From contig NW_021834724.1 in the NCBI RefSeq assembly GCF_006345805.1, forward strand, positions 1 through 26,741: a DNA stretch of 26,741 bases. Reading direction: 5' to 3'. Positions 9,005 through 26,029 of this stretch are shown piece after piece. The translations under genes were made by a program, and so were the position numbers. This DNA comes from Octopus sinensis. Its lineage: Eukaryota. Position 1 is the first letter of the stretch, and each line of letters opens with the position of its first letter. Under the pieces are notes generated by a model that was not told the origin of the DNA, did no database searches, and was given only the letters and a program-made list of their open reading frames with translations.

Positions 9005-9309
9005 AGTTTGCAAGATTCTTTATATGAGTTTGTGTTTTGAAGCATATTCTGTTATGTCTGGGGAGAGTGATTTTCTTTTTGTGCCTTATAATGTAAAACA
9101 CTCACCGGTAAAATTTCCACTTATTTCTTATTTCTATTTTCCTAAAATTTTCGTTGCGTCTTGCAACCTTTTCAATAGTTTTGACTATTGAAAAAGTTGC
9201 AAGATGCAATGAAAATTTTAGGAAAATAAGAAATAAGTGGAAATTTTACTGGTGAGTGTGTTACATTATAAGGCACAAAAAGAAAATGACTCTCCCTAGA
9301 CACAACAGC
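9005..9309. mobile_element. Foldback non-autonomous insertion, Penelope-like, with ~130-bp inverted arms (9049-9179 / 9184-9308)
   Basis: Near-perfect palindrome with a 4-nt loop (tttg); flanked by the direct repeat A10GGATTT (about 8989-9004 and 9310-9325). Confidence 0.75.
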
Positions 9310-13438: not shown

Positions 13439-13632
13439 TTAAGATGAATTAAAAATGCTTTTTTAAATGATGCAAATAAGCAAATATATATATATATCTA
13501 TAGTGAGGGTATGAGAGGTATTGATATCTAGATGACCCAGACAAGAAAGTAAAATTCAAACACAGGAAAAGTGTAAGAACAGCAGAGAGAGGTTGAATAT
13601 TTACCCTTATAAGACAGAAAAAAGTTGCCTAT

Positions 13633-13704
13633 AGACCACTATGGGAGTTGAACCTGTTCCCCTCAGATACCAGCTGAGTGCTCAGCCATTAAGCTAAACA
13701 GCCC
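13633..13704 (-). pseudogene. tRNA-like sequence with Thr-type GGT anticodon; pseudogene or SINE head
   Basis: A-box tagcttaatgg, anticodon arm ctcag-ctggtat-ctgag, B-box ggttcaactcc, downstream T6-7; mismatched acceptor stem. Confidence 0.6.
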
Positions 13705-13770: not shown

Positions 13771-13841
13771 GGACTGCTTAGCTTAGTGGTAGAGCACACA
13801 GCCAGTATCTGAGGGGTACAGGTTCAACTCCCGTAGCCTCC
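13771..13841 (+). pseudogene. tRNA-like sequence with Thr-type AGT anticodon; pseudogene or SINE head
   Basis: D arm gctt-agtggta-gagc, anticodon arm cacag-ccagtat-ctgag, T arm acagg-ttcaact-cccgt, T6 at 13852-13857. Confidence 0.65.
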
Positions 13842-23856: not shown

Positions 23857-24420
23857 TCTATATATATAAAACTGTAGTTGTGTGAGTGTCTGTCCCCTTC
23901 GATTTAGATTCCTAACTACTCCCACATTTTGCGGTGCAGTTTAACCAAATTCGGGTATCTTATAGTCGTGATTCATATCGAGCCCGTCTGAGTATTAGCG
24001 CACGTCTACGATGAGTCTACGATTTTAAAAATAATTTAACATCATTTTTTATTCCATTTTAATGCATAATTTTTCGTGTGTCGATGGCGGTGGAGTTGGC
24101 GTCCATGGTCACACCTGCACCTGTTTGCTTCTCCCCTTCTTCCCTCCCTTGTGAAGCTGTGGAGGAGGGAGTGTAAAGAAATCAACGTCATAAAGCGTTG
24201 TCAAGGAGACCAGCGTTCTTTTAGAACAACGACTTCATGGCTTGAAGACACCAAAATAGAAAATGTCTACGATGAGTCAACGATTTAAAAAAAAATTTAC
24301 CATAATTTTTTTTCCACTTTTAATGCATTTTTTTTTGCTATTTTTTGGCTATAACTCTCTAAAAATGCTTATATAGTTATTTCCCTTACAAACCTGAGCA
24401 ACGCCGGGCGATACTGCTAG
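23857..24420 (+). mobile_element. Non-autonomous Helitron, 564 bp
   Basis: 5' TCTATATATATAAAA, 3' CTAG preceded by GC hairpin cctgagcaacgccggg, inserted between A and T without duplication; internal ~63-bp direct repeat (24004-24067 / 24265-24328). Confidence 0.9.
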
Positions 24421-24430
24421 TATATATATA

Positions 24431-25090
24431 ATTAAATAAGGGTAGAAATTGATATTAATCAATTAAAACCAGTGGCTTAACATATTTTAAAAAATCCAAA
24501 GATTAAAAATTGGTTCAACATACAAAATTTAGAGGACTGACCACTAAAAGTATATAAAACAATTTTTTTAATCTTCGGATTTTTTAAAATATGCTAAGCC
24601 ACTGGTTTTAATTGATTAATATCAATTTCTACCCTTATTTAATTTTAAATTAAAAAATGTTCTCTAACCGGTAAATTGACAGCTGTAGTTTATTAACTGC
24701 AGAGTAGTTTCTGATCTCAGCGCGCCAAAGTAAAGGCATTTGAAAGATACACCTAAATATAATTTGTAGAACTTTATACATGATGGATTTCGGTTAAACA
24801 TTCTGTATCTAGTTCTGGAAATTGTGTTTTGTAAACGACAGACTATGCTGTTGATCTTGCAGATGTTTGCGTGTTCATATACGTAAATATTAACAAGTGA
24901 AATCAATTGGTACGTAGGTAATCGTTTTTTATTTCGTATATTTTCATGTGTCTTGCTTATTTTTACACTTTGGATTTTTGCTGAGATTTTTCTTGAGAAC
25001 ACATTCTTCGTGGTAAATGGCGATTTGACATCTATGTCTAGCATAGAGGCTGTCCACTTTTAGCGGTCAGTCCTCTAAATTTTGTATATA
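24431..25090. mobile_element. Non-autonomous hammerhead-bearing element: ~540-bp monomer plus ~120-bp inverted partial copy
   Basis: 24431-24517 is inverted at 24556-24644; 24520-24551 is inverted at 25056-25088; (TA)n flanks. Confidence 0.75.
24843..24917 (+). ncRNA. Type I hammerhead-ribozyme-like motif with A6U core variant and long stem II
   Basis: CUAUG CUGUUGA [u cuug cag AUGUUUGCGUGU ucau AUACGUAAAUAU uaa caag u] GAAA UCAAUUGG UA^CGUAG. Confidence 0.65.
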
Positions 25091-25340
25091 TATATATATA
25101 TTTATAAATAAGGATAATATCAATATTTAAATATCGATATTATCAAGTGGCCAGCATGGGAATAAATACCATACAAAGGTAATAATTTTTTTACAACTAT
25201 AAATAAGGATATCTGAGAGACACCACCATGCCGAAATAGCAGTCAAAACCCTGACTCCAAAAACCACCTAAAATGTTCATATTGCACCATGAGATAAGAT
25301 AGAGGGACAAAATAAACTAGCAAAAAGATTTTACTGGATA

Positions 25341-25399
25341 ATTCAAGATCCTGGATTTCTAACTTTGCTTCAAATAAGCTCTGCCTTCATCAGTTTAAT
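25341..25399 (-). ncRNA. Type I hammerhead ribozyme motif, left arm
   Basis: AUUAAA CUGAUGA [aggc aga GCUU auuug AAGC aaa guua] GAAA UCCAGGA UC^UUGAAU; one stem I mismatch. Confidence 0.7.
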
Positions 25400-25738
25400 A
25401 TACCAGATGGGCACATAAATACAAATATATATATATACAGAACATACGTTATACTTACATATACGAACGTCCATACATACATATATATTCACGTATGTAC
25501 ACGGCCAGTCCAAATTGCCTGCCAACCACCCCATAGGTGCGATATGGTCAAAATAAACACCGCAGCGAATATAGAGACAAATTATATAAATTTATAAATA
25601 AGGATAATATCGATATTTAGGGCAATTTGGACTGGCCGTGTACATACGTGCATATTTATGTATGTATGGACGTTCGTATATGTAAGTATAACATATGTTC
25701 TGTATAGATATATTTGTATTTATGTGCCCATCTGGTAT

Positions 25739-25797
25739 ATTCAACTGACGAAAGCAGAGTTTATTTGAAGCAAAGCTAGAAATCCAGGATCTTGAAT
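25739..25797 (+). ncRNA. Type I hammerhead ribozyme motif, right arm
   Basis: AUUCAA CUGACGA [a agc aga guuu auuug aagc aaa gcu a] GAAA UCC A GGA UC^UUGAAU; perfect 6-bp stem I, canonical core, predicted cut after 25791. Confidence 0.75.
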
Positions 25798-26029
25798 TAT
25801 CCAGTAAAATCTTTTTGCTAGTTTATTTTGTCCCTCTATCTTATCTCATGGTGCGATATGAACATTTTAGGTGGTTTTTAGAGTCAGGGTTTTGACTGTT
25901 ATTTCGGCATGGTGGTGTCTCTCAGATACCCTTATTTATAGTTATATATATATATATATATATATATAATCAATTCTTTCCTGCTTGCATAGATCAGGCA
26001 AAAATTGTTGAGGTGAATTTTCCACAGCC

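Follow-up and report, generated by a model that had tools for sequence, protein, structure and literature searches.

Positions 24431 to 25090 of Octopus sinensis contig NW_021834724.1 hold a two-armed, head-to-head copy of a non-coding repeat of about 534 nt whose family carries a type I hammerhead motif. Target-primed reverse transcription, using the enzyme of a Penelope-like element and an RNA template longer than one unit (tandem or circular), is likely to have placed this copy in a (TA)n tract. The window analyzed here is the whole stretch of 26,741 nt. The 534-nt retrozyme-like repeat is a new family of a kind of element that is already known; judged by titles, none of the publications listed for octopus and hammerhead ribozyme describes such a repeat. 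The features of the locus are collected in Table 1.

Table 1. Features of the two-armed locus in the window; unit numbering runs on the plus strand, with h = position - 24551
Feature	Position	Strand	Description
Left flank, (TA)5	24421..24430	none	TA tail of the upstream abundant repeat; presumed target tract
Short arm	24431..24551	-	h505-536 (24551-24520), private junction variant (24519-24510), tail from h14 to ~h93 (24509-24431); 3′ end faces left into (TA)n
Long arm	24550..25090	+	Full ~534-nt unit, preceded by 7 nt that end the previous unit (gtatata)
Right flank, (TA)n	25091..25100	none	Common to the 3′ end of the neighboring element's tail
Type I hammerhead domain	24833..24927	+	96.3% of cells paired across the family; compensatory changes in helices I, II and III
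Distal helix I, 6 bp	24833-24838 with 24922-24927	+	AAACGA/UCGUUU; an internal loop separates it from proximal helix I
Proximal helix I	24843-24847 with 24913-24917	+	CUAUG/CGUAG in the window copy; CUAUG/CAUAG in the family
Core heptamer CUGUUGA	24848..24854	+	U at 24851 replaces A6 of the family
Helix II with long hairpin	24856-24897	+	CUUG/CAAG with a closing U-U mismatch; a hairpin of 12-13 bp lengthens the helix
GAAA, helix III and GUA site	24899..24913	+	GAAA 24899-24902; helix III 24902-24911; GUA 24910-24912
Predicted cleavage	between 24912 and 24913 (h361|362)	+	GUA, then cut

The locus and its repeat family

Both arms are copies of the same unit and point their 3′ ends outward into the flanking (TA)n. 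Across the inner junction, 24424-24509 and 24565-24650 form an inverted repeat of 86 nt that is 95% complementary. The long arm ends ...aaattttgtatata and then runs into (TA)n, which is a 3′ end of the h539 type (see below). The copy at 24431-25090 has the standard form of the family: its long arm stops at h539, and its short arm carries the tail. The initial annotation read the element from the minus strand, as a unit running from 25090, where it begins tatatacaaaatttagaggactgacc, to 24552, where it ends gattaaaaaaattgttttatatac. All the quoted strings are present, and the second is the reverse complement of 24550-24573, so the end had been placed 2 nt away from its true position. The string gattaaaaattggttcaacatacaaaatttagaggactgacc, in which end and start of the unit were said to be joined within the short inverted copy, was located on the plus strand at 24501-24542. 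In monomer coordinates, 24424-24509 corresponds to 441-526 and 24520-24551 to 4-35, both on the plus strand beside a full unit on the minus strand.

The family is interspersed. A first look at the 2.72 Gb genome returned 3404 candidates, and the 40 that were scored showed 89-93% identity; the long arm matches itself at 100% and other genomic copies at 89-93%. Genome-wide, exact matches number 183 for a 21-mer from the ribozyme and 442 for one located close to the unit's 3′ end, with no match for either reversed control. The excess of the 3′ 21-mer over the ribozyme 21-mer is consistent with 5′ truncation. Three samples of copies were drawn: 30 loci picked by similarity to the whole unit; 60 ribozyme-anchored loci among the first 100 listed matches of the ribozyme 21-mer, with places already sampled left out; and 79 3′-anchored loci (69 fetched and 10 from the earlier samples) that cover the first 100 listed matches of the 3′ 21-mer. 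Contigs of four runs, whose RNA origin is a guess, also include members of the family.

The unit has a GC content of 31% (0.313) and is without a conserved reading frame, the median length of the longest open frame in 50 other copies being about 80 aa. The stop-free minus-strand frame of 131 aa in the window is private to the window copy, and the idea that it codes for a protein was rejected.

The repeat immediately upstream (24265-24430, with a partial copy at 24004-24074) is very abundant and has a (TA)n tail, and the retrozyme-like element sits in that tail. Its depth in the run contigs, whose RNA origin is guessed, is 100-1000 times that of the retrozyme-like unit. These contigs have loose ends at 24430, where other copies of the upstream repeat continue as (TA)n and not into the retrozyme-like element. 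Elsewhere in the window, a tRNA-Thr(GGU)-like sequence (13632-13704, minus strand) and a weaker tRNA-like match (13776-13837, plus strand) lie about 70 nt apart and are possibly tRNA-derived repeats.

Copy ends and template length

The 79 loci of the 3′-anchored sample comprise 150 arms. Their 3′ ends fall at h539 in 72 arms, at the tail site in 65 and elsewhere in 13, so that two fixed sites, about 95 nt apart and both followed by (TA)n, hold 137 of the 150 ends. Those at h539 read ...TTTTGTATGTA and those at the tail site ...CCCTTATTTAATT. The tail is the start of the next unit, 86-99 nt long, and ends about 95 nt beyond h539. At least three TA repeats were present within 16 nt after 54 of the 72 h539 ends and 53 of the 65 tail ends, as against 15 of 158 control positions. 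The 5′ starts, in contrast to the 3′ ends, lie scattered across the unit, with arm length falling smoothly away from the 3′ end (median 161 nt, 150 arms). The variable 5′ ends combined with fixed 3′ ends are the footprint of target-primed reverse transcription. The initial annotation had suggested a circularly permuted element; free permutation of the copies is contradicted by the mapped 3′ ends, since these occupy two fixed sites and the variation is confined to the 5′ side.

Most loci are two-armed. There were 57 head-to-head pairs in the 79 loci, leaving 36 of the 150 arms unpaired. An h539 end was combined with a tail in 45 of the 57 pairs; two pairs were h539/h539, one was tail/tail and nine had an end of the other class. 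Exactly one arm is therefore tailed in 45 of 57 pairs, a regularity that we refer to as the one-tail rule. The 60 ribozyme-anchored loci contained 28 pairs, with 15 mixed, one tail/tail, no h539/h539 and 12 that included an end of the other class. The tail-less arm was the longer one in 35 of the 45 mixed pairs of the 3′-anchored sample. The 5′ starts of paired arms lay within 25 nt of each other in 20 of the 57 pairs, compared with a mean of 9.3 after shuffling, and none of 5000 shuffles reached 20. The inner junctions differ between loci, and no target-site duplications were recognized in 27 single arms. What looked like circular permutation is better described as a two-armed insertion of the Penelope type, with the inverted copy as its usual second arm.

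Several whole two-armed insertions occur in duplicate at 100% identity, 0.8-1.8 kb apart (L145, L173, L180 and L022/L028), as post-insertion segmental duplications. Rfam gave two sub-threshold matches to MIR6288 in the window. The match at 24463-24611 is simply the two inverted arms, and that at 9136-9227 is a separate, near-perfect hairpin of 92 nt. Reading the two-armed locus as a microRNA or as a plain palindrome was rejected because the inner junction varies between loci, and in annotation such loci should not be taken for microRNA hairpins.

The same ends bear on two readings that involve a DNA transposon. The inverted repeat of the window copy and the TA repeats on either side of it are what a cut-and-paste DNA transposon of the foldback or MITE type, with its long terminal inverted repeats, might leave. 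A cut-and-paste family would share one internal structure, whereas here the inner junction is different at each locus; the outer ends of the arms (h539 on one side, tail on the other) are unlike and form no terminal inverted repeat, the sampled copies do not have fixed ends of that kind on both sides, and 36 of the 150 arms are single. We consider this origin scarcely credible. A non-autonomous rolling-circle transposon of the Helitron or Helentron type, in which read-through replication produces copies longer than the unit, would fit both the existence of such copies and the AT-rich target sites. Helitrons have ends of the form 5′-TC ... CTRR-3′ with a subterminal hairpin. The 3′ ends of the octopus unit have the two sequences given above and not CTRR preceded by a hairpin. 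Furthermore, the variable end is the 5′ end in the sense of the ribozyme, with smooth decay of arm length, and Helitrons are not known for inverted second arms whose end types complement each other. Rolling-circle transposition is accordingly a highly improbable source of these copies.

Target-primed reverse transcription from an RNA longer than the unit is the reading that we prefer. Thirteen of the 150 arms exceed one unit (>540 nt), with two of these coming from a single locus that has been duplicated. No arm in any sample was longer than 998 nt, and arms of more than two units were not seen. The junction between unit end and unit start, ...TTTTGTATGTAAAACAATTTTTAATC..., is family-wide. Since nearly all copies have the same inherited sequence at this junction, it is template-encoded and was not made at insertion, and arms longer than the unit imply that templates of more than one unit, tandem or circular, existed. 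The part of the initial annotation that proposed a circular or tandem template is thereby retained as regards its length; a circle may have been involved but is not required. Among the 100 places listed for the ribozyme 21-mer, there were two same-strand pairs at a spacing of about 535 nt. Within one insertion, units or arms are 92.1% identical (median of 70 comparisons, post-insertion duplicates included), as against 89.1% between unrelated copies, and the family is too old for these values to discriminate a circle from a tandem.

A further feature of the 5′ starts is a pile-up at h362-380 (24913-24931), where 15 arms begin compared with three and two in the 19-nt bins on either side. Because one palindromic junction can contribute both of its halves, as it does for several of these arms, the pile-up represents about 12 independent events. 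Of 50 arms that reach h362-380, 13 end there. Relative to the predicted cut, the pile-up is 6-18 nt downstream, where the 3′ strand of helix I and a T6 run are located; no start falls exactly at h362. Possible causes are RNA 5′ ends made by the ribozyme, a stall at the fold or a template switch at the A/T run.

The hammerhead motif

The fold noted at 24843-24917 by the initial annotation is present as described, with stem I, the core, the helix II hairpin, GAAA and GUA all in place. The layout follows the order I-II-III, with helix I open. Two refinements are needed. A second, distal helix of 6 bp extends stem I, and the palindrome AUCAAUUGGU, which had been put forward as stem III, is unable to form a 5-bp stem with itself; it is better read as 3 bp of helix III with AAUU, a palindromic tetraloop, as the cap. 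In the family, helix III consists of A-U, C-G and then U-A or C-G, with AAUU as the loop.

Conservation was assessed in copies that had not been selected on the core. The core is CTGATGA in 30 of 36 and in 15 of 20 such copies, so that the family core is CUGAUGA. The remaining cores were CTGACGA (three), TTGATGA, ATGATGA and CTGATAT (one each) in the sample of 36, and CTAATGA (two), CTGATGG, CTGAAGA and CTGACGA (one each) in the sample of 20. GAAA is retained in 35/36 and 17/20 copies and GTA (cleavage triplet NUH) in 33/36 and 19/20; core, GAAA and GTA are all intact in 27/36 and 11/20.

Pairing was examined in an alignment of 82 copies and 30 pairs, 60 of the loci having been chosen on the core 21-mer. 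The two partners can pair in 96.3% of 2456 cells, compared with 23-52% when partners are slid by 1-3 columns. Changes on both sides of a pair were found in 33 cells, distributed over six pairs, where shuffling gave a mean of 13.2 and none of 500 shuffles reached 33; since the copies share ancestry, a single event may enter these counts many times, and they do not stand for independent changes. The most informative columns include pair 78-83 of helix III (UA 52, CG 23, UG 3, other 4), pair 17-88 of helix I (UA 71, UG 5, CG 3, other 3) and pair 41-55 of helix II (CG 64, UG 13, UA 3, other 2). Minimum-energy folding reproduced helices I and II in all three copies and helix III in one of three. 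The fold is thus kept across the family. A simple hammerhead descriptor matched a canonical copy and one of 3000 dinucleotide shuffles of a unit, and gave eight matches in 276,000 strand-bases of flanks. A covariance model built from the family ribozyme scores 121 bits at 24833-24927. The hammerhead motif of the family is beyond chance.

The Rfam hammerhead models gave no match at E<=10 in the window, in five loci with a canonical core or in a 121-nt search of one canonical copy. This is likely due to the hairpin of about 30 nt inside helix II together with the U-U closing pair. The usual G10.1-C11.1 pair at the base of helix II is absent, columns 26 and 72 both being T, and the U-U mismatch in its place suggests that the predicted ribozyme activity may be weak.

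The Rfam result would also suit a dispersed short satellite, or extrachromosomal circular DNA that re-integrated with no RNA step, in which the hammerhead look-alike is conserved but non-catalytic. No run on record as RNA contains the stretch, which would suit this reading too. On the other side, the break points of re-integrated circles should be random at either end, and the 3′ ends are instead fixed at two sites in 137 of 150 arms; in addition, three helices are kept by compensatory changes. We regard a purely DNA-based origin as very unlikely and retain an RNA intermediate.

The window copy differs from its family in the core. CTGTTGA occurred in none of the sampled copies, so the A6U change is private to the window copy, and each contig that covers 24851 reads A (contigs of four runs, RNA origin guessed). 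The family keeps the conserved core, but the window copy, with CUGUUGA, does not. In hammerhead ribozymes, core changes of the A6U type are generally inactivating, and the initial annotation took A6U to be probably so in this copy. The window copy would then be a dead, non-cleaving insertion.

The adjoining element at 25101-25953 is another head-to-head, two-armed repeat, with inverted arms at 25185-25435/25703-25953 (94%) and 25414-25519/25621-25726 (91%). It has a hammerhead-like motif of its own, with CUGAUGA at 25387-25393 (minus strand) and CUGACGA at 25745-25751 (plus strand), on which Rfam is silent. Both arms end ...CCTTATTTATAG. The minus arm seems to be about 100 nt longer (25101-25199), reaching a second ...CCTTATTTATAA followed by (TA)n, and the element appears to obey the one-tail rule. 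The 10-mer CCCTTATTTA, just before (TA)n, is common to the tail end of the family and to the arm ends of this neighbor (24632-24641, 24433-24442 on the minus strand and 25929-25938), and may be a common priming or recognition motif.

Probable insertion by Penelope-like machinery and comparison with known systems

The octopus genome offers candidate machinery. A GIY-YIG profile gave 5029 candidates, and 147 of the 150 that were scored were above the Pfam cut-off. Two ORFs, of 780 and 883 aa, carry RVT_1 together with a GIY-YIG domain at the C terminus, and many intact Penelope-like ORFs with RT and GIY-YIG are present. Seven of eight full-length Penelope-like loci (L121-L128) end ...TTTTTTAC(A/G)AA and then a TA repeat, 0.7-1.1 kb past the stop codon, so that a Penelope lineage associated with (TA)n, and with its endonuclease at the C terminus, is common in the octopus genome. 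When the unit was compared by BLAST with 30 GIY-YIG loci and the eight full-length loci (38 sampled from 5029 candidates), no convincing match was found. Weak matches of 60-70% to h55-115 look compositional. In the same 38 loci, our ribozyme covariance model (R1) detected microsatellite noise only, and the motif CCCTTATTTA was absent. No hammerhead was detected by Rfam at gathering score in the eight full-length loci. One of these, L124, has a canonical-looking hammerhead (CUGAUGAG...CGAAAC-AUAU-GUC) at sense coordinate ~1485, upstream of its RT/GIY-YIG ORF, as a descriptor match with no Rfam hit at gathering score.

The outcome of the partner search over 38 loci, along with 5′ truncation and a 3′ microsatellite, which are also typical of LINE-dependent elements, would be compatible with a SINE-like, non-autonomous element mobilized by a LINE. 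The microsatellite tail would guide priming, and the hammerhead-like motif would be incidental or have another role. However, the two-armed form is dominant (57 pairs in 79 loci), the one-tail rule is followed by 45 of 57 pairs and there are partial tandems with a template-encoded junction, all of them features listed for Penelope-like elements (PMC8557442). Type I hammerheads are, moreover, a published mark of Penelope pLTRs and of retrozymes. Mobilization by a LINE is therefore unlikely.

In the preferred scheme, which borrows a Penelope-like reverse transcriptase and endonuclease, a GIY-YIG cut in a (TA)n tract would create two ends, both of them (TA)n. Each end would anneal to one imperfect (UA)n-like tract of the RNA and prime cDNA synthesis; the candidate priming tracts are ...UUUUGUAUGUA, which lies at the unit end, and ...CCCUUAUUUAAUU, about 95 nt beyond it. 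A template switch or copy-back would then join the two cDNAs head to head. The ribozyme is predicted to reduce multimeric transcripts to single units, and it may do so as a dimer formed through the palindromic loop of helix III, and the unit RNA might be circularized, as in published retrozymes. Priming from two ends and the joining of the cDNAs would account for the choice of target, for both fixed 3′ sites, for the one-tail rule and for the near-symmetry that the arms often show. A stronger version can be advanced tentatively, as a possibility that we do not favor as a whole. The scars may record Penelope-type integration in which the two ends of one (TA)n break prime on different (UA)n-like tracts of a single RNA, about 95 nt apart, leaving exactly one tail at each insertion, and the pile-up at h362-380 may mean that ribozyme-cleaved, linear unit RNAs served as templates in vivo beside uncut or circular ones.

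Animal retrozymes and their link to Penelope have already been described, and the octopus family leaves that picture unchanged. It adds a family with a large unit and an atypical ribozyme that standard Rfam models miss. Hundreds of insertions under one rule (two arms, two fixed sites, (TA)n) also make a clean natural data set on the tandem and inverted insertions of Penelope-type RT/GIY-YIG enzymes.

In L1 twin priming, both ends of a break prime reverse transcription, and this gives an inverted 5′ part. The scheme proposed here is similar in both respects. It departs from twin priming in three ways: it has a fixed second priming site, its two arms frequently overlap in unit coordinates, and one of them is tailed.

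Animal retrozymes are described as non-coding repeats with type I hammerheads and a unit of 170-400 nt (PMC7229834). The octopus family resembles these metazoan non-LTR retrozymes, whose units are dispersed or in tandem (Cervera and de la Pena 2020, PMC7229834), in having a dispersed, non-coding, low-GC unit with one type I hammerhead each. It departs from the description given there in three ways: its unit is 534 nt long; its copies are mostly 5′-truncated fragments or two-armed insertions and not arrays; and its helix II has an extra hairpin of about 30 nt. A close parallel is the axolotl retrozyme ribozyme HHR_Amex2, for which the same source reports that a U-U mismatch sits at the base of helix II, that helix III has 2 bp and a tetraloop, and that cleavage is weak alone and better as a dimer (PMC7229834). 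In the octopus motif, too, helix III is short with a palindromic tetraloop, and the base of helix II has U-U. PMC7229834 contains neither the word octopus nor the word cephalopod.

Animal retrozymes are reported to derive from Penelope pLTRs, to which they are related by sequence in Xenopus (Li, Clavereau and Pollet 2026, bioRxiv 10.64898/2026.07.22.740005). As in that case, hammerhead repeats and abundant Penelope-like elements co-occur in one genome; unlike it, no relatedness between retrozyme and Penelope was found in the 38 octopus loci.

The insertions themselves are best compared with those of Penelope-like elements, which are described as showing strong 5′ truncation, partial tandems (pLTRs), an adjacent inverted and 5′-truncated copy, and a tail of 30-40 bp that is often at one end only (Craig et al. 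2021, PMC8557442). The mechanism that builds these tandem and inverted insertions is called open in that account (PMC8557442). Two differences are apparent: the octopus unit is without an ORF, and hence non-autonomous, and its tail is 86-99 nt long (compare PMC8557442). No sequence similarity was found between the unit and the 38 sampled Penelope-like loci. In other respects, the family matches the endonuclease-bearing Penelope-like insertions point by point, with 5′ truncation, partial tandems, an inverted truncated copy, a tail at one end and a (TA)n target (PMC8557442). The target preference for (TA)n is reported there for Naiads, a clade described as lacking canonical hammerheads (PMC8557442), whereas the (TA)n-targeting family of the octopus has a hammerhead in the canonical order.
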